This document shows, in pieces, positions 3,981 through 61,929 of a stretch of DNA of 64,000 bases. The translations under genes and the position numbers were made by a program. Source of the DNA: a phage; NCBI GenBank assembly GCA_011911785.1, contig GCA_011911785.1_4084.1; one strand, 5' to 3'. How positions within the stretch are numbered: the stretch's first letter is position 1; every line of letters starts with the position of its first letter. A model generated the notes under the pieces. That model saw only the letters and a program-made list of their open reading frames with translations. It made no database searches and had not been told where the DNA came from.

Positions 3981-4037
3981 ATGAGTTCCATAAATATTAG
4001 TATAAATTTATACCTATTATTTATGGAAGGAATAATC

Positions 4038-5015
4038 ATGTCCCATCACGGTGTGTATATGTACCCTTATAATCAGGAAGTATCATTGGGCAATTTTAAT
4101 ATGCCATTTAACAATGATAAGTTAACGATTTATCGTGGTGCTAACAATAACGTAACTTTCACAGTACACAATGCTGATGGAAAGTACACTCAATTAAAAA
4201 CTAATGAATATTTAACATTTATGATTTTCGATGCACGTAACAATACGATTTTGTTTGATACTGTATTGGAAAAGATTTTACCAAGTTGGTTAAACGATAG
4301 TGGTCAGGCTAAACCTACTTTGGGTAATAGTAAAAAAGTATATTATGGTTGTATAATTCCTGCTGGTATTATACAAGATACTAGTCCTGGTTCCAAATAC
4401 AGATGGAGTATTACTAAAGTAACTATGGACGGTTCGTTGATTGAACCAACACAGTACTTATATACTGGTTTAAATTATGAAGCATCATCTGAACTAATTA
4501 TCTCCGACAAAGCAGCACCTGTTTTCGTACCAAGCATTGAAGTTTCTGCTGATCAGAATCCATCTTGGAAATCTATCAAGTCTGCGTTCAGAGAACCTAT
4601 TAGTGATGGTTTTAAAGGTGAATTTGATGTTATGTGTACATCGCCTTTGAGAGCACAAATGCAATATGGTTTAGTTGATGGTTTAAGTACTATTGCAATT
4701 TACTGTAATGGTTTTATTGGTAGGATACAGTTACAAGGATGCTTGAGTAATGATGTACCAAGTGATAGTGATAACTATAAGTGGTTTATTATCAAGTTGG
4801 ATGGAAAAGAGTACATCGAGAATGGCATAGATGAAAATGGCGTACCCGTTCCGTTGGAAGGTATACAGGCATTTAATTTTAAAGGTAATTACATGTGGCT
4901 TCGTGTGGTTGTTAGTATTCGTCCAATCTCCAAACCAATCCCATATGATTATGCTGCAATCCGTAAAATCTATAACCCACTCTTAACTGTTCCTAAAATT
5001 TTGATTCGTCGATGA
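4038..5015 (+). CDS. hypothetical protein (325 aa)
   Basis: In-frame ATG at 4038 preceded by GGAAGG; start moved from ORF-track 3843 because the upstream extension is low-complexity. Confidence 0.55.
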   Translation: MSHHGVYMYPYNQEVSLGNFNMPFNNDKLTIYRGANNNVTFTVHNADGKYTQLKTNEYLTFMIFDARNNTILFDTVLEKILPSWLNDSGQAKPTLGNSKKVYYGCIIPAGIIQDTSPGSKYRWSITKVTMDGSLIEPTQYLYTGLNYEASSELIISDKAAPVFVPSIEVSADQNPSWKSIKSAFREPISDGFKGEFDVMCTSPLRAQMQYGLVDGLSTIAIYCNGFIGRIQLQGCLSNDVPSDSDNYKWFIIKLDGKEYIENGIDENGVPVPLEGIQAFNFKGNYMWLRVVVSIRPISKPIPYDYAAIRKIYNPLLTVPKILIRR

Positions 5016-5068
5016 GACATACTCATAAGCTGTGATATAATCATCGAAGACAAGAAAAGGAATTACAT

Positions 5069-8488: not shown

Positions 8489-8504
8489 TTGTGATAAATA
8501 TCAT

Positions 8505-9716: not shown

Positions 9717-10402
9717 ATTACGAATATGACCAAAAATCGGTTGACATGATGACTAACTTACTAAGTGGTTTGAATGATATCGAGTCTGGTAATGTGTCTG
9801 CATCATCTGGTGCACATTATAATACTGGTGGTGATATTGGGGCAATGACTGATATTTTGACCTCATTAAATGAGGCTGGTATGAATTACGGTGAACCAGT
9901 ACAACAGGTACACCAAGAACATCCTCATGTAACAACATATAATAGCCCTTACAATGAACACATTATGGGGCATCCAGCGTCCACACCACAATACGCACCT
10001 AGTGCCAGTACTAAACCAAAAACTAACTGGAGTTTAGTAGAAGAGAAAGTTCCAGGAACTAAAAATACAAAAACCTATAGTATCAAAAGTAATCATAGCT
10101 CACAAATACTAATGAATAATATCATGATGTACGAAGCTGCACTTACTTTAGTTAACTTATTAAATGAAGGTCGAGTATTGACTGATGCTAAAATTTTAGG
10201 TATCATTAGCTCTGGGATGCAATTCACTCATGTGATGAACGAAGCACTTAATGCTGCAAAGAAGAGACAACAAGTATTGAATGAGTCTAAGTACGATGAA
10301 GCTAAAGATCTAGACGTACTAATTGCTGAAAAGAAAGCAGAAGCATTTAAACTTAAAGAACGTGTTATGAACTTCCTCAAGAGTGAAGGTTATATCAAGT
10401 AA
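9713..10402 (+). CDS. hypothetical protein (229 aa)
   Basis: ORF track; ATGA overlap. Confidence 0.55.
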   Translation: MNYEYDQKSVDMMTNLLSGLNDIESGNVSASSGAHYNTGGDIGAMTDILTSLNEAGMNYGEPVQQVHQEHPHVTTYNSPYNEHIMGHPASTPQYAPSASTKPKTNWSLVEEKVPGTKNTKTYSIKSNHSSQILMNNIMMYEAALTLVNLLNEGRVLTDAKILGIISSGMQFTHVMNEALNAAKKRQQVLNESKYDEAKDLDVLIAEKKAEAFKLKERVMNFLKSEGYIK

Positions 10403-10435
10403 ATAAATTTAGGATATTTTTATAAGGAAATACAA

Positions 10436-11408: not shown

Positions 11409-11412
11409 AAAA

Positions 11413-11442
11413 TTGAGACAAACAAAAATATAGTGCTATAAT
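11413..11442 (+). promoter_or_regulatory. sigma70-like promoter (TTGAGA-N18-TATAAT)
   Basis: TTGAGA at 11413-18 and TATAAT at 11437-42, directly upstream of RBS AGGAG and ATG 11456. Confidence 0.5.
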
Positions 11443-12175: not shown

Positions 12176-12722
12176 ACAAATGAAACAAGACTTATATATT
12201 ATCAAAGCACTACGTAGTAAAGGTTATGAAATCGATGAAGTTATGGCAATGAGCATTGAGGAAATCGAAGCATTACCACTACCACAGCGTATCATTGAAA
12301 ACGCAAAGGATTACAAAGCTCGTGGTGCTAAGCCAGTAGAAGTAATCAAAGAAAAGATTTTTGAAGATATTAGTGTAGATGAAGCATCTCGTAATGTTAA
12401 ACCTGAAGTTATCGAAGAATACGTAGAAAATTCAGAAGATCAAGAAAAAGCACTAGAAGAAGTAAAACAAATTGTAGAAGAACAACAAGAATCTGTTGAA
12501 TCCGAAGAAGATGTTGTTGTTATTGAGCGTATCGAAGCTTCCAAAGAAGATCTAGATATCATCAAAACTTCTCTACAATCAAAAGAACTAAAAACTGTAG
12601 CAGCATATATCAAACACCTAAAAGCTGAAGTTCCAGAAGCAATTCTTGCAGCGGTTGATAGTTCAGTTGTATCTCGTTTAGTTAACGAGCGTATTGCTGA
12701 AGTAAAAGAAAATGCTAAATAA
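12144..12722 (+). CDS. hypothetical acidic protein (192 aa; start uncertain)
   Basis: ORF track; Glu-rich; alternative in-frame ATGs at 12162 and 12180. Confidence 0.5.
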   Translation: MEKLKPMEQHKQMKQDLYIIKALRSKGYEIDEVMAMSIEEIEALPLPQRIIENAKDYKARGAKPVEVIKEKIFEDISVDEASRNVKPEVIEEYVENSEDQEKALEEVKQIVEEQQESVESEEDVVVIERIEASKEDLDIIKTSLQSKELKTVAAYIKHLKAEVPEAILAAVDSSVVSRLVNERIAEVKENAK

Positions 12723-13351: not shown

Positions 13352-13411
13352 TTCCCCATAATTTTGCAGTACTAAATATTGAACTGAAATAATGAGTAAC
13401 AAGGATGATAA

Positions 13412-17150: not shown

Positions 17151-22733
<5,583 letters not shown>

Positions 22734-22777
22734 CAATAAATAATCAAAAGTGCTTTGTATAATGGAGAAAATATACA

Positions 22778-23636: not shown

Positions 23637-26880
<3,244 letters not shown>

Positions 26881-26881
<1 letters not shown>

Positions 26882-27735
26882 TGCCATCTAAATCAAAATC
26901 ACAGGCTCGCTTTATGGCGGCAGCAGCACATGATCCAGAATTTGCTAAACGTAATGGTATTTCACAAGATGCTGCGAAAGAGTGGAATCATGCTGATGAA
27001 AAAGCTGGAAATCTTAAAAAAGGGGCGAAGTTGCCCCAACACGTTAAAAAGAAAACAACCGAATCTTCGATGAAAGGTTGGGTTGATATAATTCAAGATG
27101 CAGAAATTGCACAGGACAATCCTGAAATTGATGATACAATGGATGTACACGCAGATGATTGTGAGTGTGAACAGTGTTGTCAAAATAAAGAACATCACTT
27201 CTATGAAAATACTGAGAAGTTGGAAGAAATGCCACAACGCTTTGATAGTTTTCAGGGACAAGACCGTGATGAGTTTGTCGATAAGACAGCAGAAATGACA
27301 GGTAAACATAACATGGTAATCTTTGCTAAACATAACGATTATGATGTTTATCAGAATAAGAACGGAACTGGTTTTATTGCATATGATAAAAGTGGTAAGC
27401 AACTAGCAATTGTCAGTGGACATACTTCAAATGATGCAGTACTAGGTGTTCAGAATGTTTTCGAAATCGCAGCAACTGCATCTAAAACTGGCACAAAAGG
27501 TATCATTTACACTATCTTTATGGATATGGTAAAGCACGGATACGCTATACTTAGTGATAGTTTACACACTGATGATGCAATTAAATTTTGGACTCGACTA
27601 ATTGGTTCACATCAAGTGTACATTGTTGGTGGTGGTGAAGTTTTAGCAAAGGCAACACCAGAAAAAGTTCACAAATATTGGAGTGATGATGAGACAAGCC
27701 CAAGTGCTGAGTTACAATTACTCCTTGTTAAATAA
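26881..27735 (+). CDS. hypothetical protein (284 aa)
   Basis: ORF track; ATGA-type overlap; Cys cluster DDCECEQCC. Confidence 0.55.
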
Positions 27736-27744
27736 GGATACTAT

Positions 27745-28131
27745 ATGAGTATACTTTTAGTTTTTGGGCTATTGGCATTATTTCAAATAAAACATTTTCT
27801 GTGTGATTATATATTCCAAGGCAAATACATGCTTGGTAAATTTAAAGAGCATGGGTGGTTTCTACCATTGACAGCACACGTTGCTGTTCATGTATTAGGA
27901 ACTGCAATAATTATTGCAATTTTTGCTTGTTATATTGGAACAACGTGGAAGGTGTTTTTCATGCTTCTTGCAATTGATGCAGTTGTTCATTTTGTAATGG
28001 ACCGAGTTAAAGTTGTTGGCTCTAAACAACACACACCACAAGATGCTGAATTTTGGTGGTGGTTAGGGTATGATCAAATGATTCATCATTTTACCCATTA
28101 TGTTATCATTTTTGGATTACTTCTTTTGTAA
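27745..28131 (+). CDS. integral membrane protein with conserved His residues (128 aa)
   Basis: ORF track; several hydrophobic helices. Confidence 0.55.
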   Translation: MSILLVFGLLALFQIKHFLCDYIFQGKYMLGKFKEHGWFLPLTAHVAVHVLGTAIIIAIFACYIGTTWKVFFMLLAIDAVVHFVMDRVKVVGSKQHTPQDAEFWWWLGYDQMIHHFTHYVIIFGLLLL

Positions 28132-28167
28132 TTATATTCGGGGGGCTTTATGCTCTCCGAATTCTTT

Positions 28168-28202
28168 TTGAGACAAATAAACTTTTCGTGATACAATATC
28201 AC
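28168..28202 (+). promoter_or_regulatory. sigma70-like promoter with palindromic -10 region
   Basis: TTGAGA at 28168-73, TACAAT at 28192-97 embedded in palindrome GTGATA-CAA-TATCAC (28188-28202). Confidence 0.45.
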
Positions 28203-28231
28203 AAGACACAGAGACACTAAAAGGAATTAAA

Positions 28232-30196
28232 ATGGCTAAGAAAGAAAGTGCTGTTCTACAAGAACATGACGTTCAACGTCTAAACGATTATCAACATGCT
28301 CGTCTACGTACTGAGATGTATCTTGGTTCTCGTTCTATTCACGAAAGTCAAGTACTGATTTTTGGTGAAAATGATTATGCTGTAAAAAATATGGAATGGG
28401 TTCCTGCAATTCTTACTGCAACTCGTGAAATTATTGATAACAGTCTTGATGAATTCAAAAAAGCTGGTACGAAAGAACCAGTACTGAAAGTTGATTTCAA
28501 TGAAGAAGACCTTTCCTTCGAAATCAGTGATAATGGTCGTGGTATTCCGATTGATTATGTCCCAGAGTATGAGAAAAACCTCTGTACGATGGTAATGACT
28601 GAAACTAAAACTGGTCGTAACTTTGATGATTCTAAGCGTGATGAAACAATCGGTCAAAACGGTCTAGGTGGTTCTGTGGCTATGATTGTTAGCTCTAAAG
28701 CAGAACTTGAAATTCACCGAACCGGACGTCCATATAAAACGCAATCCAGTAATGACGGTTATGATGGTATGTACAAATATACACAGAAGTTTGAAGAAGG
28801 TACAATTATGTTCCCTGAACTTCATGTACATGAACCAACTATTCGAAAAGTACAATCCGATAAAACTGGTACAACTATTCGCTTTACCCTAAGTAAAGAA
28901 GTATTTCCTAATCGCAAGCTACCAACTGAATTACTTTATAGTATTCTAAAAGAAATGGCAGCAGCGAACCCAACATACAAAATCTTCTTGAATGGTAAAC
29001 GTATTGCAATTAAAGGAAGCACAGAAAAGGCACTCTTTAATGCTTCAAAACTAATGTCATTGAATGTTAAAGATGAATCATTCAATTTCAATAGTACTTT
29101 TTATATTGTACCTAATGCTGTATCTGGTATGAACACAAACTTCCATATGCATGGTCTTGTGAATAATGCTCCAGCATTTGATGGTGGTACACATCTAGAT
29201 ACCTTCAAGAAATTCTTCTCTTTAGGGGTAGGAACTGCATTAGAGAAAGAAGCGAAGAAGCGTAAGATGAAACCAAACCGTTCTGATATTGAAGAAGGTT
29301 TGTTGATTTACAATGTAACTACAATGAAAGCACCATCATTCAACTCACAGATTAAATCTAAGTTGACTAATGAAAATGTAATTCGTCCTATTCAGCAAGC
29401 TATGAGTGCTGACTGGTTTGATGAATTGGTCAAGAAAAATAAAGAATGGGTTGATGAGATTTTTGAACGTTGTGCTGCCCGTACTAATAAGAAAGACGCA
29501 GAAGAAGACCGTCGCCTTGCCAAGAAACTTTTGAAAGGTAAAGTTGCAAAACTACTTGATAGTACTGGAACTGACCGTTCACAATGTATTCTATTGGTTG
29601 CGGAAGGTGACTCTGCTATTTCCAACATGGCAAGTGCTCGTATTCCTAGTATTCATGGTATCCTCCCATTGCGTGGTAAGATTATGAACGTTAGTGGGAA
29701 TGAGAAAACCAAAGAATTAATGGATTCTATGGCATTACATGATATAATGGCAAGCATCAACTTGGTCCCTGGAGTTAAAGCTGAACGTGCTGATTTGAAT
29801 TACGGTAAGCTATATATCTGTGCGGACGAAGATGAGGATGGTAAGAACATTGGTGCACTAGTTTGTAACTTCTTGTACAAATTCTGGCCCGAATTATTCC
29901 AAGATCCTGATAATCCGTTTGTATACGTATTCAAAACTCCATTTATTATCTTGGAGAAAGGTAAGGAATCTAAGTATTTTTATGGTCATAACGTCCATGA
30001 ATATATTCCTGAAGATTGGAAAGGGTGGAAAGCAACTCGTGCGAAAGGTTTAGGAACACTCGAAAAAAGTAACTTCCGCGATGCATTTACGAATAGTGTT
30101 GCAGTAGCAATTACTGATGACGGTCGTCTTGGTGAAACATTAGATTTGATTTTCAACAAGAAACGTGCTGATGATCGTAAAAACTGGATGGAATAA
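28232..30196 (+). CDS. DNA topoisomerase II large subunit (GyrB/ParE-like ATPase plus TOPRIM; T4 gp39/gp60 equivalent, fused)
   Basis: GHKL ATPase motifs ISDNGRGIP and QNGLGGSVA; TOPRIM EGDSA and DEDEDGKNIG; 654 aa. Confidence 0.9.
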   Translation: MAKKESAVLQEHDVQRLNDYQHARLRTEMYLGSRSIHESQVLIFGENDYAVKNMEWVPAILTATREIIDNSLDEFKKAGTKEPVLKVDFNEEDLSFEISDNGRGIPIDYVPEYEKNLCTMVMTETKTGRNFDDSKRDETIGQNGLGGSVAMIVSSKAELEIHRTGRPYKTQSSNDGYDGMYKYTQKFEEGTIMFPELHVHEPTIRKVQSDKTGTTIRFTLSKEVFPNRKLPTELLYSILKEMAAANPTYKIFLNGKRIAIKGSTEKALFNASKLMSLNVKDESFNFNSTFYIVPNAVSGMNTNFHMHGLVNNAPAFDGGTHLDTFKKFFSLGVGTALEKEAKKRKMKPNRSDIEEGLLIYNVTTMKAPSFNSQIKSKLTNENVIRPIQQAMSADWFDELVKKNKEWVDEIFERCAARTNKKDAEEDRRLAKKLLKGKVAKLLDSTGTDRSQCILLVAEGDSAISNMASARIPSIHGILPLRGKIMNVSGNEKTKELMDSMALHDIMASINLVPGVKAERADLNYGKLYICADEDEDGKNIGALVCNFLYKFWPELFQDPDNPFVYVFKTPFIILEKGKESKYFYGHNVHEYIPEDWKGWKATRAKGLGTLEKSNFRDAFTNSVAVAITDDGRLGETLDLIFNKKRADDRKNWME

Positions 30197-30202
30197 TGTA
30201 AT

Positions 30203-30227
30203 AAGGGGGACATGGTGTTCCCCGCTT
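30203..30227 (+). other. inter-cistronic hairpin (weak terminator or processing site)
   Basis: GGGGGA-CATGGTG-TTCCCC stem-loop without a U-tract. Confidence 0.3.
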
Positions 30228-30244
30228 AACAAAGAGACAATGGA

Positions 30245-31657
30245 ATGGCTAAAAGTAAGAAAAACACTAATACAAATGTTGATGAATTAACTCTAACTTT
30301 ACTTGATTATAAAAGTTCAGATTATGTCAATACTACATCATTAGAATACTCAATGTACACACTTGACCGTGCTATCCCAGGGATTGACGGACTCAAGAGT
30401 TCTCAACGTAAAGCAATCTTCACATTATCCAAAATCAGTGGGGAGATTAAAACTGTTTCATGTGCAGGTCGTATGATCAGTGATGGGATTTACGTTCATG
30501 GTGACACATCTGCATCAGGAACATTACAAAACCTAGCTAGTCCAGTTGCTAACAACTACCCACTGATTGGTAAGCGTGGTGGTTTCGGGACACAAGTTAA
30601 CAGTACTCCGGCATCTGCTCGTTATACCTACGTCAAAAAGACAAAAACGACTGAAGCATTAGTTCTACGTGATATGGATATAATTCCAATGAAAGAGAAC
30701 TATGATGGTACAACAATGGAACCAGTACACTTCCTTCCTATCATCCCATTAGCATTGTTTGGTAATGATAGTATGTCAGTAGGATATAAGAGTACAATTC
30801 TACCTCATAAAATTGAAGATGTAATTAAGAACTGTATTCGTGCAATAGAAGGAAAACCACTCAAAGAGATGACACCATATTATGCATCTGTTGGTGCTAG
30901 TGATGTGGTAACTAAACTAGACGAAAACAAATATGAATTTTATGGTAAAGCACAGGTAATTGATGCAAGTACTGTTAAAGTTACAGGGCTTCCACCTAAT
31001 TATAGTATTGAAAAGTTCATTGAAAAACTAATCAAGATGAGTGATGATGGTGATATACGTGATTACGATAATGACAGTACTGATGTTATTGATATCACCA
31101 TTAAACTACCACGTGGTATTTCTCAAAAATGGACAGAGGCAGATGTAATTGAGTATTTTGGATTGAATAAAAAGATGACTCAATTGTTAACTGTTTTGGG
31201 TGAAAATGGTAAAGTTCGCGTATATGACAGTACACTTGACCTTATTAAAGATTTCGTCAATTTCCGTTTCAAATATTATGTGAAACGTTACGAGAAGAAG
31301 CTTGAAGACTGTGCAGCAGAAGTTCGTTATAAAATTCTCATCAAAGAGTGTTTTGATAATGATATGATCGGTAAAGTGAAAGGATTTGCAAACCGTGCTG
31401 AAATGGTTGATTTTGTAACTTCTCTCAATACTGAAATTGAAGCAACAAATGAGAATATCCAAAGTATCGTAAACTTCCCATCATATCGTTGGACTAAAGA
31501 TAATTATGATGCAGTACTAAAAGATATTCAAGATAATCTAGACCTAATGGATAGTTATAATGATTTACTTAACAATCATGATAAAATCTGGAATATCTAT
31601 AAAGAAGAATTACAAGAATTACTAAAAATGGACTTTACACCTAAGTCTGAAGATTAA
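30245..31657 (+). CDS. DNA topoisomerase II medium subunit (GyrA-like breakage-reunion; T4 gp52 equivalent)
   Basis: N-terminal YSMYTLDRAIPGIDGLKSSQRK; catalytic Tyr region SARYTY; 470 aa; directly downstream of the large subunit. Confidence 0.85.
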   Translation: MAKSKKNTNTNVDELTLTLLDYKSSDYVNTTSLEYSMYTLDRAIPGIDGLKSSQRKAIFTLSKISGEIKTVSCAGRMISDGIYVHGDTSASGTLQNLASPVANNYPLIGKRGGFGTQVNSTPASARYTYVKKTKTTEALVLRDMDIIPMKENYDGTTMEPVHFLPIIPLALFGNDSMSVGYKSTILPHKIEDVIKNCIRAIEGKPLKEMTPYYASVGASDVVTKLDENKYEFYGKAQVIDASTVKVTGLPPNYSIEKFIEKLIKMSDDGDIRDYDNDSTDVIDITIKLPRGISQKWTEADVIEYFGLNKKMTQLLTVLGENGKVRVYDSTLDLIKDFVNFRFKYYVKRYEKKLEDCAAEVRYKILIKECFDNDMIGKVKGFANRAEMVDFVTSLNTEIEATNENIQSIVNFPSYRWTKDNYDAVLKDIQDNLDLMDSYNDLLNNHDKIWNIYKEELQELLKMDFTPKSED

Positions 31658-31665
31658 TATATAAG

Positions 31666-31690
31666 GGAAGACCCATTGGGTCTTCCTTCC
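31666..31690 (+). terminator. intrinsic terminator
   Basis: GGAAGACCC-ATT-GGGTCTTCC perfect 9-bp hairpin followed by pyrimidine/T-rich tract. Confidence 0.6.
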
Positions 31691-31697
31691 TCCTTTA

Positions 31698-31705
31698 TAT
31701 AAATA
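31698..31705 (+). promoter_or_regulatory. T4-late-promoter-like TATAAATA box
   Basis: Exact TATAAATA about 33 nt upstream of ATG 31739. Confidence 0.3.
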
Positions 31706-31738
31706 ATCTATAGATATTAGTAGCTATGGAGAAATAAA

Positions 31739-34126
31739 ATGGCATCTTTTACCCCGTATTGGGATTTAAAGGCTGATACTCAATATATTCAAGAAGGAAC
31801 TGACATTCTTATTAGATTAAGTATCAATAAAGAAGGAACTACAGGTGATAGCTATACACTAAGTCAAAATGAATACTTAGAGATGATTTTCACTATACAA
31901 TGTTTAGATAATGTTGGTAATGTTTTTAATGCTGAAAACCACTATTCATTATTAGTTGGAAATGACCCGAACAATCTAGTACCATTATCTGATGGAACAA
32001 CTGGAAATAAGTTTTTAAATGGAAGACATAAGTGTAGAATACAAAAGAATAATTTTTATCTTCCAAGTACAATAATCAGTGAAGATGTGTATTATTTAAA
32101 ACTACATTGTAAGCGTGATGGTACATTTAATAACGTGGAAAGTGTTGTTTTCAATTTACAGGCTATTAACGTCATGCATTTTGGGAACATTTCACCATCA
32201 GGATTATTGCGTGCCAACAAAGCAACTGTTACATTTGATAGTAAAGAAATATGGGTAACACCTGGATTAACTGTTACCGATGATGAACAGTTATATTGTA
32301 TTGGAGACATAGAGTATGGTTCAGATAGTACTTTATTCATTCAAGGCTTCGGTCGTAAACGTCCGTATCAACCAAATGTAGATAGTGCCGTTGACACCAG
32401 TCCACGTGTATTCTTCCCCGCTTATCGCTTGCTTGATATAACAGAACAAGATTTACCGTCTCGACATATTACAGGTAAAGCAGCTTACTTACGACCAGAT
32501 GACTTAGCGTTTCCGGTTGACGGAATTAATAAAGAAGTTAAAGTTAATATAGTTGATGATACTGGTAAGATTACAAAAAGTGGGCTTTCTTTTAACCCGA
32601 ATGGACAATTCTTACAAACATTTTTACATGAATCAGAACCAACTGACGTTTACTTTAAGGTAGAAATCGTAGATATTCTCAAAACCTACAATACACTTTC
32701 TGAACGTTTTGCTATTGATCAGCGTTTTAAAGCATATCAAATGTGGGTATGTCCAAACGATGTATCTACTATTGCTGCTACTGATGAAAAACCAAAACCT
32801 AATCATTTATATCAATTAAGAGATAACGTTGTGTATCCATATGTTATTAGTGGTGAATATGATGAAGGTATGATCAAACCATTATTCAAAAGTTCTGATT
32901 GGAATGATTTGGGTTATTATGATGTGTCATTGGGTAGTGGTATTATTGGTGAAAAGCGTATGTTCCGTTTCTTGGAAAACGCCGCTGAAGGTTCATCTAT
33001 ACAAATAATTACCGATCCTGACTTGGGAACTATACACGTTGGAGAATACTTCGGTCATACAGTATATCCTCAAATACTTACTAATAGTAAGAATCAAGTA
33101 TCTTGTGTATTAGTGGGCGGTGATGACATAACAAAATATGGATTGGATCTTACACCTGATGGGTATCTTGTAGGTACAGCATATGCATTAAGCACTGATT
33201 TTAGTGCCAATGATGATATAAAATTGAATTTCCAGGTTGAAGTTTATGACACTGAAGGTAGTAGTGTTATTGGTGATTTCAAATTAAAAATCGTTCGCGG
33301 GTTGGGGCAAAATCATTTGAGTTCACATATTGTTCCATCTGTTCAATTTGAACGTGAATGGTTTAAATGTATCAGTACTCAAACATTTGCTAATTATGGT
33401 TTCCATCGTCAATCTGATGACAGATATGGTTTACAGAAAGTTCCTAGGATTCTTCTAAAAGAAAACTTTGTTAGTCAAAACTATAATTACACTAACTTAA
33501 ATGATTTGAAAAAAGTTCTCCGTGAGAATATAATAGATCCATCAGGGGCGACAATCCCTAACGGTAAATTCAAGATGGTTATTGGTAATTACAAAATCAT
33601 GTCAGCACTTGACAACAAAGGAAACCTTCTGTATGATTTAGTGTTTAGAGAGTTACATCCAGAAGGAACACAAGTTGCTGTTTCTACCAATCCCAGAATC
33701 TACACAAACGTAGATAACGGACTACTTGCCGAATTATTTGGTTTACGCCAGAATATTTACAAGGCTGTTGGTGAAGACACAACCAACTTGGTAAAAGACC
33801 CAACAGACTTAGTTAACCGTGGGTTATATGTTGATGCTATACCAGGTATAAGTGATGAGATGATTGATACTGTTCCACGCTTCATGAATCATCCATATAT
33901 TGAAGATGGGATTGAGAAAAAATTTATGCCTATCATTCCAGTAGCATACTGCTTACCTGGTAAGGGTGAAGCGTTTTTCCAAATGTTATTACAAAACAAC
34001 GAACATAGTTCAATGGTTAGTACTGAATTTGAAGTAACAGCAGTTGAATTCGGATACTTTGCTCAAGATCATGAGCGTTATGTACATGATACATTTAGAA
34101 TTGCATTACAGAATGATATAATATAA
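31739..34126 (+). CDS. large hypothetical protein (795 aa)
   Basis: ORF track; GGAG RBS; long uninterrupted frame. Confidence 0.6.
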   Translation: MASFTPYWDLKADTQYIQEGTDILIRLSINKEGTTGDSYTLSQNEYLEMIFTIQCLDNVGNVFNAENHYSLLVGNDPNNLVPLSDGTTGNKFLNGRHKCRIQKNNFYLPSTIISEDVYYLKLHCKRDGTFNNVESVVFNLQAINVMHFGNISPSGLLRANKATVTFDSKEIWVTPGLTVTDDEQLYCIGDIEYGSDSTLFIQGFGRKRPYQPNVDSAVDTSPRVFFPAYRLLDITEQDLPSRHITGKAAYLRPDDLAFPVDGINKEVKVNIVDDTGKITKSGLSFNPNGQFLQTFLHESEPTDVYFKVEIVDILKTYNTLSERFAIDQRFKAYQMWVCPNDVSTIAATDEKPKPNHLYQLRDNVVYPYVISGEYDEGMIKPLFKSSDWNDLGYYDVSLGSGIIGEKRMFRFLENAAEGSSIQIITDPDLGTIHVGEYFGHTVYPQILTNSKNQVSCVLVGGDDITKYGLDLTPDGYLVGTAYALSTDFSANDDIKLNFQVEVYDTEGSSVIGDFKLKIVRGLGQNHLSSHIVPSVQFEREWFKCISTQTFANYGFHRQSDDRYGLQKVPRILLKENFVSQNYNYTNLNDLKKVLRENIIDPSGATIPNGKFKMVIGNYKIMSALDNKGNLLYDLVFRELHPEGTQVAVSTNPRIYTNVDNGLLAELFGLRQNIYKAVGEDTTNLVKDPTDLVNRGLYVDAIPGISDEMIDTVPRFMNHPYIEDGIEKKFMPIIPVAYCLPGKGEAFFQMLLQNNEHSSMVSTEFEVTAVEFGYFAQDHERYVHDTFRIALQNDII

Positions 34127-34139
34127 TAGGAGAAAAAAT

Positions 34140-34448
34140 ATGTTCAATCCATTTTTTGACCCTTCTGGTATGAGTGATAAAGAACTCCAACAAAAGATTA
34201 ATGATCAAAGTTTACGTATTAGTTCCGCTCGTGCCGCTGGCTTGAGTGATTCTATCATTGGTAACATGCAAATAGTACTGAATCAGTGCTATGAAGAAAT
34301 GACTTTACGACAAGGTAGAAAAGAGAAAGACACATACGAAGATACTGATCCATGTATTTTTGATATGAATTCTTATCTATCAGATGAAGAGGATAGTAAA
34401 AAGAAAAATGAAAGTTCAAGGAAACAGATATATAAGTCCCAATGGTGA
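34140..34448 (+). CDS. hypothetical protein (102 aa)
   Basis: ORF track; AGGAG RBS. Confidence 0.5.
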   Translation: MFNPFFDPSGMSDKELQQKINDQSLRISSARAAGLSDSIIGNMQIVLNQCYEEMTLRQGRKEKDTYEDTDPCIFDMNSYLSDEEDSKKKNESSRKQIYKSQW

Positions 34449-34926
34449 TGTTAAATGTAATTTGAATGCTGTAGTTTATGCTATGAATTGTGGGTCTGAT
34501 ATACAGTACTTACAATTACAAGATATAGATGAACAAGAGCGTTTGAAGTTTAACGATAACTGTAAAAAATTTGGACTAGAGCAACGTATGTTGGATTATA
34601 CAATTGACCATGATAGTAATCATGAGTTATGGCGTTATGATCCAATGTATGACAATATCAATCTAAGAGAATTCTTTTTACAAAAGTGTTCCACACCTGA
34701 AGCAAGACAGCGTGTGGAATACGAAATTGATTTATACGAACAATATAATATGACAAAGCTATTGCGTTGTATGATATGGTTGGTAGATTATATGGAAGAG
34801 CACAACATCTTCTGGGGCTTAGGGCGTGGTAGTTCTGTAGCCTCATATTGTCTGTTTCTGATTGGTTTGCATATGGTTGACTCATTGAAGTATGATCTCG
34901 ATGTGAACGAATTTCTGAAATGGTAA
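34408..34926 (+). CDS. hypothetical protein (about 172 aa; start uncertain)
   Basis: ORF track 34384-34926; in-frame ATGs at 34384 and 34408 both overlap the previous gene. Confidence 0.45.
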   Translation: MKVQGNRYISPNGDVKCNLNAVVYAMNCGSDIQYLQLQDIDEQERLKFNDNCKKFGLEQRMLDYTIDHDSNHELWRYDPMYDNINLREFFLQKCSTPEARQRVEYEIDLYEQYNMTKLLRCMIWLVDYMEEHNIFWGLGRGSSVASYCLFLIGLHMVDSLKYDLDVNEFLKW

Positions 34927-34935
34927 CGAAACATG

Positions 34936-34944
34936 TGATATAAT
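34936..34944 (+). promoter_or_regulatory. extended -10 promoter element (TGaTATAAT)
   Basis: TGATATAAT about 40 nt upstream of ATG 34985. Confidence 0.4.
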
Positions 34945-35676: not shown

Positions 35677-35688
35677 TTATAAAAGTAA

Positions 35689-35718
35689 GCTCGGAATATA
35701 TATTCTGGGCTTTTTATT
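35689..35718 (+). terminator. intrinsic terminator
   Basis: GCTCGGAATAT/ATATTCTGGGC hairpin (with G-U pairs) followed by TTTTTATTT. Confidence 0.6.
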
Positions 35719-37627: not shown

Positions 37628-37676
37628 CAAAGTAGTAAATAATATAAATGTTCAAGTTTTTAAGGGAATAAAAAAC

Positions 37677-61891: not shown

Positions 61892-61929
61892 AATAAATAG
61901 TTACCTATAGATTAATCTAAGGAGTAACT

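Follow-up and report, generated by a model that had tools for sequence, protein, structure and literature searches.

The window analysed here, a stretch of 64,000 nucleotides of phage DNA, is 99.3% identical to Escherichia phage A4, a Rak2-like jumbo coliphage of the genus Asteriusvirus. On its plus strand, the gene for the medium subunit of topoisomerase II (gp52-like; 30245..31657; phrog_551, E 2e-142; A4_82 in the A4 annotation) is followed by an intrinsic terminator at 31664..31697, consisting of an 11-bp GC-rich hairpin (31664-31688, fold energy -17.4 kcal/mol) and a T-rich tail, an exact TATAAATA box at 31698-31705, a Shine-Dalgarno sequence (GGAG, 31728..31731), and the gene for a virion structural protein of 795 aa (89.9 kDa; 31739..34126). 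The latter matches phrog_13911 over its full length with E=0, residues 1-793 aligning to profile positions 1-785 of 789. Further downstream lies a conserved ORF of 102 aa (34140..34448, plus strand; phrog_15348, E 9e-50), which is annotated in phAPEC6, RaK2, CBB and GAP32 and absent from the A4 annotation. An Rfam scan of the window returned tRNA and nothing else. The first-pass annotation had placed the box about 33 nt upstream of the largest ORF in the window and directly after the topoisomerase terminator, and this description is accurate: 33 nt lie between the box and the ATG at 31739, the runner-up among the ORFs has 772 aa, and hairpin and T-rich tail fill the interval between the medium-subunit stop codon (31657) and the box. 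The proposed functional core of the box, ATAAATA (31699-31705), would represent a late-promoter element of the -10 type; part of this motif overlaps the T/A-rich tail of the terminator.

For the operon encoding the large and medium subunits of topoisomerase II, a middle-type promoter candidate, TGAGACA-N14-TGATACAAT, was located at 28165..28197 (plus strand) by consensus match only. It has the same architecture as 'promoter 1' of phage CBB (TGAAACG...TGnTATAAT), and CBB Porf_324 is found at the equivalent place; the terminator after the CBB topoisomerase gene is listed as Torf325 (PMC5259590). Between the medium-subunit gene and the 795-aa gene, a search for sigma-70 promoters (-35/-10 hexamers with 16-18 nt spacing) yielded only a 9/12 match at 31711-31740, which ends within the start codon. 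A further candidate, the extended -10-like sequence TGATATAAT at 34114..34122 (plus strand), likewise a consensus match only, falls within the final codons of the 795-aa gene, 18 nt short of the following ORF. Sites of the middle-promoter pattern thus concern the operons next to the box and have no bearing on the box.

In the window, TATAAATA occurs once on both strands together, against 9.8 +/- 2.7 copies expected from shuffles, and ATAAATA 11 times against 36 +/- 6.3 expected. The exact 8-mer alone is thus not enriched, and the signal therefore lies in depletion together with position: of the 11 ATAAATA copies, six are found 28-41 nt 5' of a Shine-Dalgarno sequence and start codon (binomial p about 1e-6). 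The A4 genome presents the same picture, with 55 copies of ATAAATA against about 174-206 expected (3-4-fold depleted) and 13 of TATAAATA against about 46-58. Of these 55 copies, 37, belonging to 36 genes, are positioned 15-61 nt upstream of annotated starts (p 2e-39), and 27 of the 36 genes are annotated, by homology, as structural (Fisher odds ratio 34, p 7e-20), including those for major capsid protein, scaffold, protease, tail sheath, baseplate wedge and hub, and long tail fibre; the endonuclease VII gene has the motif as well. An unbiased enrichment test of k-mers, applied to the 70-nt regions preceding 72 structural genes, put TAAATA first among the 6-mers (37/72 genes, 37-fold, p 1e-47) and ATAAATA first among the 7-mers (79-fold, p 6e-43), both outranking the Shine-Dalgarno sequence.

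Across the 36 A4 sites, the nucleotide preceding ATAAATA is A in 14, C in 8, G in 6 and T in 8 cases, A is enriched 6 nt past the motif (25/36 sites), and no sequence 5' of the motif, such as a -35 element, is shared. Judged from these sites, conservation is limited to ATAAATA or NTAAATA and leaves the initial T of the T4 octamer outside the motif. The earlier designation of the box as T4-late-type accordingly applies to its ATAAATA core and fails for the leading T. In T4-like cyanophages, a different phage group, the late-promoter motif is NATAAATA, and both the ATAAATA core and the degenerate first position are common to the two.

The box is one of several such elements on the plus strand of the window. 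ATAAATA is found at 3990..3996, 41 nt upstream of A4_44, at 8494..8500, 41 nt upstream of A4_50, and at 22736..22742, 35 nt upstream of A4_71, all three encoding structural proteins; at 24730..24736, 28 nt upstream of A4_75, beyond which lie the structural genes A4_76, A4_77 and A4_79; and at 61893..61899, 30 nt upstream of A4_140 (DUF1353 protein). A second copy near the A4_44 site (4018-4024, minus strand) faces A4_43. Variants of the motif precede further structural genes, namely GTAAATA at 10399..10405 (30 nt upstream of A4_53), CTAAATA at 12715..12721 (29 nt upstream of A4_57) and GTAAATA at 37635..37641 (35 nt upstream of A4_90, a virion structural protein of phrog_12928). A minus-strand GTAAATA at about 20036-20042 was considered as promoter of the A4_66-64 structural operon and dropped, as it is about 98 nt from the annotated start. 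In the first-pass annotation, the gene would be late-expressed despite its location in the early/replication block. This location is not exceptional, because the surrounding block is a mosaic that holds at least nine comparable units of motif and virion gene.

For phylogenetic footprinting, we used 13 phages (Asteriusvirus, Alcyoneusvirus, Mimasvirus, Eneladusvirus and unclassified), in which protein identity falls to 42%. The gene order, with the topoisomerase II medium subunit followed by the orthologue of the 795-aa protein, is kept in all 13, and so are, within the orthologous intergenic regions, a terminator hairpin, (A/G)TAAATA, a Shine-Dalgarno sequence and the ATG; between topoisomerase stop codon and ATG, only TAAATA and the Shine-Dalgarno/ATG positions, including the GGAG, are invariant. 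The orthologous sites read AATAAATA, CATAAATA and GTAAATA. Terminator hairpins were folded for each sequence separately, since RNAalifold on the MAFFT alignment, in which the hairpins are out of register, gave no consensus; they are located 5-22 nt upstream of the motif in 13/13 phages, with energies of -12.5 to -21 kcal/mol and at least four different stem sequences.

That the 795-aa protein might be virion-associated, as the first-pass annotation had put it, is borne out for its orthologues in three phages, which were detected by mass spectrometry in purified virions of phAPEC6, GAP32 and RaK2. The phAPEC6 orthologue, gp158c, is 68% identical to the protein of the window in a gap-free alignment and was identified in virions with 9 peptides at 17.1% coverage (90.30 kDa); GAP32_321 and RaK2 ORF160 are the other two MS-positive orthologues. 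The text of the RaK2 paper mentions neither promoters nor ORF160, and the CBB orthologue is not among the proteins detected in the mass spectrometry of CBB (PMC5259590). Two AF2 models of the 795-aa protein reached pLDDT values of 86.9 and 89.6, the second of which was used for the C-terminal domain. The N-terminal part of about 520 residues is predicted to form a tandem array of Ig-like beta-sandwiches, for which a fold search with the full-length model retrieved only generic tandem Ig/cadherin arrays at low TM scores; a Pfam scan gave no match for the protein, and no Ig family in particular. Domain-wise fold searches were informative solely for the C-terminal domain (residues about 525-795), which has a 2H fold in the model (Foldseek probability 1.0, E 4e-6 to 1e-3, TM (target) 0.5-0.63 against LigT, CPDase and Usb1).

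We do not call the protein a phosphoesterase, because the two catalytic H-x-T/S-x motifs are absent: residues 525-795 contain no conserved HxT/S pair. The conserved histidines of this domain occur instead as H718-P-Y and H756-x-[S/T/A], and as H640-P in 78% of sequences. As the catalytic histidines are lost and many invariant polar residues kept, the 2H-like domain could be a module carried by the virion for nucleotide binding or for a non-canonical enzymatic activity. The predicted beta-sandwich array, with its matches to cadherin/Ig arrays and phage 'Ig' proteins, resembles the Ig-like virion surface proteins of tailed phages, such as T4 Hoc; the 795-aa protein has no Pfam Ig match and, unlike Hoc, adds the C-terminal 2H-phosphoesterase-like domain. 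Virion surface proteins with Ig-like domains are described for tailed phages (Fraser et al., 2006, as cited in PMC5259590).

A gp55-like late sigma factor, the presence of which the first-pass annotation had left to be checked, is encoded by A4_588, which lies outside the window in the 99%-identical A4 genome and matches both phrog_234 ('late sigma transcription factor', E 3e-17) and T4 gp55 (24% identity over 139 aa, BLASTP E 2e-4). About 120 of its 279 aa form an N-terminal extension, and it is without the clamp-binding (S/T)LDFL tail that T4 gp55, gp33 and gp43 possess. BLASTP and phmmer searches of all A4 ORFs of at least 50 aa with T4 gp33 gave nothing better than E 3.5, at the sensitivity of pairwise comparison, and searches of all A4 ORFs with T4 gp45, DsbA and RpbA gave no credible match; for gp33, the authors of the CBB study likewise report finding none (PMC5259590). 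Since a clamp loader is encoded in the genome (phrog_168), a divergent sliding clamp may exist. Like T4 late promoters, which have TATAAATA at -10 and are served by gp55, gp33 and the gp45 clamp, the element described here is an A/T-rich sequence of the -10 type with an ATAAATA core and without a -35 element, situated 30-40 nt before the starts of virion genes and of endonuclease VII, and the gp55-family sigma gene adjoins annotated gp47/gp46-like genes. It differs from T4 in that conservation does not extend to the octamer's first T, the sigma factor is extended at the N-terminus and lacks the tail, and gp33 and gp45 are undetected. With no gp33 or gp45 detected and no clamp-binding tail on the gp55-like protein, the T4 activation mechanism is not simply transferable.

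A close likeness is to 'promoter 3' of the Rak2-like phages CBB and GAP32, members of the same clade, (A/C/G)TAAATA followed by A/T-rich sequence before structural genes, with a gp55-like sigma common to both. For CBB and GAP32, this late motif was described as ATAAATA with A/T-rich sequence downstream, 5' of structural genes and together with a gp55-like sigma factor (Buttimer et al., 2017, PMC5259590; for GAP32, Abbasifar et al., 2014, as cited there). The CBB 'promoter 3' table, with 35 sites, omits the site 5' of CBB_326, although CATAAATA occurs there. In the literature, we found no promoter analysis of A4 or other Asteriusvirus genomes equivalent to that of CBB and no transcriptome for Asteriusvirus or Rak2-like phages; the PA5oct paper has RNA-seq, and no late-promoter motif is contained in it.

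The box might also be a chance A/T-rich string, effectively the tail of the terminator, in an intergenic region of 35% G+C, with the 795-aa gene transcribed early or in the middle phase by read-through from the topoisomerase operon or from a host sigma-70 promoter. A single copy of the 8-mer where shuffles give about ten per window is statistically unremarkable, and the box abuts the T-rich tail; moreover, virion detection is no proof of late-only expression, because the topoisomerase subunit gp159c is also present in phAPEC6 virions. Such an origin is nevertheless very improbable in view of the invariance of TAAATA at this position in 13 phages, where the flanking intergenic sequence diverges, and of the genome-wide depletion of a motif whose copies are concentrated before virion genes. 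The intergenic region offers no usable sigma-70 promoter, and a terminator that is both strong and conserved speaks for a gene insulated from the operon before it.

If the motif is functional, its reader could be other than the gp55-like protein: ATAAATA could serve as -10 element for the sigma-70-family proteins A4_181 or A4_187, as the binding site of another late activator, or as a signal for RNA processing or stability at the 5' end of late messages. The presence of these further sigma-like proteins speaks for this, as do the weak resemblance of A4_588 to gp55, its N-terminal extension and the failure to find gp33 and gp45. The motif, on the other hand, is identical to the core of the sequence recognised by T4 gp55, and members of the gp55 family are the only factors known to read it (PMC6024815). 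A4_181 has the regions 2, 3 and 4 typical of factors for -35/-10 promoters and better fits the TGAGACA/TGAAAYG...TATAAT class than an element without -35, and the sites have no common sequence 5' of the motif. We consider these alternatives unlikely.

With high probability, the TATAAATA box is a late-gene promoter of the type found in Rak2-like jumbo phages, with ATAAATA as its core, NTAAATA as its looser form and no -35 element. Late in infection, the core of the host RNA polymerase together with the gp55-like sigma factor (the A4_588 orthologue, encoded outside the window) would recognise the element, and the transcript would begin a few nucleotides downstream, in the region 31710..31713 of the plus strand, as predicted by analogy with the start-site spacing of T4 late promoters. 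It would span the 795-aa gene and, because no terminator follows that gene, probably extend over the 102-aa ORF and the Pol III-alpha-like gene, so that the 102-aa ORF would share the late promoter. The conserved terminator directly upstream would insulate this late unit from the middle-class topoisomerase operon, and the gene would encode a component of the virion in which an Ig-like array is joined to an alpha/beta domain at the C-terminus. The conditional reading of the first-pass annotation, by which the 795-aa gene is expressed late, is supported, its checkable parts having held.

More tentatively, late transcription in Rak2-like phages might work by a modified form of the T4 mechanism, with a 7-bp ATAAATA element and a gp55-like sigma factor that has gained an N-terminal extension and lost its tail; we regard this as possible and rather doubtful. 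With the tail lost and neither a gp33 nor a gp45 partner detectable, late promoters might then fire without a DNA-loaded sliding clamp, uncoupled from replication.

The finding is correct and ordinary in kind, because the promoter motif has already been described in these giant E. coli phages and the product is known from the virions of relatives; motif, sigma factor and virion status of the protein family were published for sister phages, and current understanding is unchanged. What is obtained is a concrete map of the promoters along one part of an Asteriusvirus genome, in which units of late promoter and virion gene, each bounded by a terminator, are scattered across the replication region. 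This scatter accounts for the spread of 'structural' proteins detected by mass spectrometry over genomes of 350 kb, and NTAAATA 25-45 nt 5' of a start codon provides a simple sequence rule for predicting late or virion genes among unannotated ORFs. If the variant mechanism is true, hairpin terminators would serve to interleave late virion genes among the replication genes.

The segment 31000-35000 of the window was matched over its full length by Escherichia phage A4 (ON286972.1, 355,528 bp, genus Asteriusvirus), a Rak2/121Q/PBECO4-like jumbo myovirus, at 99.3% identity, and by the remaining Asteriusvirus genomes at about 75%. For the regions of the phage beyond the window, the complete A4 genome was taken as proxy. 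From window position ~4000 to ~31000, the window-to-A4 offset shifts by 198 bp, perhaps within about 24700-31000; the source phage thus differs from the deposited A4 by at least one indel of ~200 bp.

The octamer TATAAATA occupies 31698-31705 on the + strand, 33 nt from the ATG (31739) of the 795-aa ORF (31739-34126), the longest in the window. An 11-bp GC-rich hairpin with a T-rich tail (31664-31688, -17.4 kcal/mol) separates it from the topoisomerase stop codon (31657), so these coordinates agree with the first-pass annotation, which had put the box about 33 nt before the largest ORF and just past the topoisomerase terminator. The A4 counterpart of the ORF, A4_83, is labelled 'structural protein' and has 'topoisomerase II medium subunit' on one side and a 'DNA polymerase III alpha subunit' fragment on the other. 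On both strands of the 64 kb, TATAAATA occurs once, against 9.8 ± 2.7 copies in dinucleotide-preserving shuffles; taken alone, the 8-mer is no more than chance, and the informative point is the avoidance of the motif elsewhere. Its core ATAAATA is found 11 times where 36 ± 6.3 copies are expected, with nine of the 11 on the coding strand and six placed 28-41 nt 5' of a Shine-Dalgarno sequence and start codon (binomial p ~1e-6).

Across A4, 55 copies of ATAAATA and 13 of TATAAATA were observed, against ~174-206 and ~46-58, respectively, expected from Markov-1 and Markov-3 simulations. Thirty-seven ATAAATA copies lie 15-61 nt 5' of annotated starts, belonging to 36 genes (p 2e-39), 27 of which have virion or assembly annotations (odds ratio 34, p 7e-20; 72 such genes among ~590). 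They include the genes for the major capsid protein, scaffold, prohead protease, tail sheath, baseplate wedge and hub, long tail fibre and other tail fibres. The motif-bearing set also takes in endonuclease VII. To avoid bias, every k-mer within 70 nt 5' of the 72 structural genes was scored against its frequency in the genome, leaving out an artefact of an N-filled 203-nt gap. TAAATA was the top 6-mer (37/72 genes, 37-fold, p 1e-47) and ATAAATA the top 7-mer (79-fold, p 6e-43), both outranking Shine-Dalgarno words. Alignment of the 36 A4 sites revealed no conserved sequence 5' of the motif, and hence no -35 element; the preceding base is variable (A14, C8, G6, T8), and A is enriched 6 nt past the motif (25/36), plausibly marking the start point of transcription, as judged from the alignment. 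From the flanking positions and k-mers, the unit is ATAAATA, or NTAAATA with variants. Of the T4-type octamer proposed earlier, the ATAAATA core therefore stands, and the leading T at 31698 is incidental.

Full-length orthologues of the 795-aa protein were found in 73 phage records of the Rak2-like clade, at identities down to ~42%, besides one distant match in a Vibrio phage. Thirteen loci were compared (the window, phAPEC6, 121Q, JNE01, vB_Ec-M-J, RaK2, Hallingskeid, Munch, Serratia BF, fHe-Yen9-04, GAP32, CBB and XaC1), and all share the order topoisomerase II medium subunit, 795-aa gene orthologue, ~100-aa ORF, Pol III-alpha-like gene. In the intergenic alignment, TAAATA and the SD/ATG are the only invariant blocks, the motif reading ATAAATA at 12 loci and GTAAATA in RaK2. 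All 13 loci are predicted to form a hairpin (-12.5 to -21 kcal/mol), built from at least four unrelated stem sequences and followed after 5-22 nt by the motif and after a further 27-38 nt by the ATG. That this layout is kept with unrelated stems indicates that the arrangement of terminator, late element, SD and ATG is under selection while its sequence drifts.

A gp55-like late sigma factor, named in the first-pass annotation as a point to check, is encoded in A4 outside the window: A4_588 (279 aa, A4 200920-201759) matches phrog_12791 'sigma factor for late transcription' (E 1e-151), phrog_234 'late sigma transcription factor' (residues 125-262, E 3e-17) and T4 gp55 (24% identity over 139 residues, pairwise E 2e-4). 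As in T4, genes annotated as gp47/gp46-like nuclease subunits come after it. Unlike T4 gp55, A4_588 has a ~120-aa N-terminal extension and ends in ...IERKNDDGTI, without the (S/T)LDFL clamp-binding motif that forms the common C-terminal end of T4 gp55, gp33 and gp43. The C-terminal end of the A4 DNA polymerase is ...NNGFFSW, not an LDFL-type tail. T4 late promoters require gp55, gp33 and gp45 (PMC6024815); no credible match to gp33 or gp45 was obtained among all A4 ORFs, and neither was found in CBB by its authors (PMC5259590). Since a clamp loader is encoded (phrog_168 match), A4 may have a divergent sliding clamp.

The location of the box within the replication block is not exceptional: ATAAATA/NTAAATA elements also precede A4_44, A4_50, A4_53, A4_57, A4_71, A4_75-79, A4_90 and A4_140, and late virion genes with such elements are interleaved within the block. 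Within 3990-4024, ATAAATA occurs once on each strand; the two copies, with 28 nt between them, point towards A4_43 (-) and A4_44 (+, structural), which diverge, and look like a back-to-back late promoter pair. At 13372-13378, a late-type element, the CTAAATA variant, stands 33 nt 5' of the gene for the large subunit of ribonucleotide reductase (13412); it may be fortuitous or may reflect dual-phase expression of this nucleotide-metabolism gene.

For the topoisomerase operon, TGAGACA-N14-TGATACAAT (28165-28197) is a candidate promoter of middle type, which follows a terminator of its own and is built like CBB 'promoter 1'; two sites of the latter, Porf_324 and Porf_329, flank the equivalent region of CBB (PMC5259590). 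A matching candidate, TGAAATGG...TGATATAAT, lies at 34916-34944. Together with 5010-5041 and 11411-11442, these candidates form a second class (TGAGACA or TGAAAYG, 13-14 nt, TGnTAyAAT) preceding the primase, exonuclease, topoisomerase and A4_85 genes, which resembles the 'TGAAACG' promoters of CBB/GAP32 and may be recognised by A4_181, a sigma-70-family protein of the phage. Downstream of the 795-aa gene, the first terminator is at 35687-35712, so late transcripts would extend into a conserved 102-aa ORF (34140-34448, phrog_15348; annotated in phAPEC6, RaK2, CBB, GAP32 and 121Q, without annotation in A4) and the Pol III-alpha-like gene (34408-34926). The first 41 nt of the latter are shared, in another frame, with the 102-aa ORF; the overlap is A-rich (AAAAAGAAAAATG) and of identical length in 121Q, RaK2 and CBB.

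The 795-aa protein (89.9 kDa, pI 5.0) belongs to phrog_13911 'virion structural protein' and contains no Pfam domain. Its possible virion association, raised in the first-pass annotation, is supported by experimental evidence from relatives: phAPEC6 gp158c was detected by virion MS (90.30 kDa, 9 unique peptides, 17.1% coverage; PMC7247149), and the CBB paper's comparison table records MS detection for GAP32_321 and RaK2 ORF160 and non-detection for the CBB orthologue (PMC5259590). The gp158c gene adjoins that of topoisomerase subunit gp159c; its product, with a mass of 90.30 kDa computed from sequence, is 68% identical to the 795-aa protein over 795 residues, gap-free. An AlphaFold2 model based on 54 homologues (mean pLDDT 86.9) predicts beta-sandwich domains for the N-terminal ~520 residues, matching cadherin and Ig arrays and phage 'Ig' proteins. 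In the best-conserved beta-sandwich region (residues 331-524), I-H-V-G-E-Y-F-G-H-(T/S)-V-Y-P at residues 430-445 is near-invariant among the homologues. Residues 525-795 (window 33311-34123), modelled separately, gave a confident prediction (pLDDT 89.6, pTM 0.87), whose fold resembles that of the 2H phosphoesterases LigT, plant CPDase and Usb1 (probability 1.0, E 4e-6 to 1e-3). The 2H phosphoesterase superfamily is defined by two HxT/S motifs. As these are absent from residues 525-795, a phosphoesterase identity was dropped and only the resemblance in fold retained. Many polar residues of this domain are invariant across the 54 homologues, e.g. R539, K574-E575-N576, R637-E638, R670, R694, D710-T711, R714 and H718.

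While the motif behaves like T4 late promoters, 'promoter 3' of the sister phages CBB and GAP32 is a closer match, with ATAAATA followed by A/T-rich sequence at 35 sites 5' of structural genes, alongside a gp55-like sigma (PMC5259590). The CBB list of sites (PMC5259590) omits the one before CBB_326, though CATAAATA is present there; for A4 or other Asteriusvirus genomes, no promoter analysis was found in the literature. We infer late timing, the start site and the link between sigma factor and motif at the box, which is probably a functional late-class promoter; that the 795-aa product is a virion component we hold with still greater confidence. The box is a further instance of a promoter type already described in CBB/GAP32, as a specialist on Rak2-like phages would expect.
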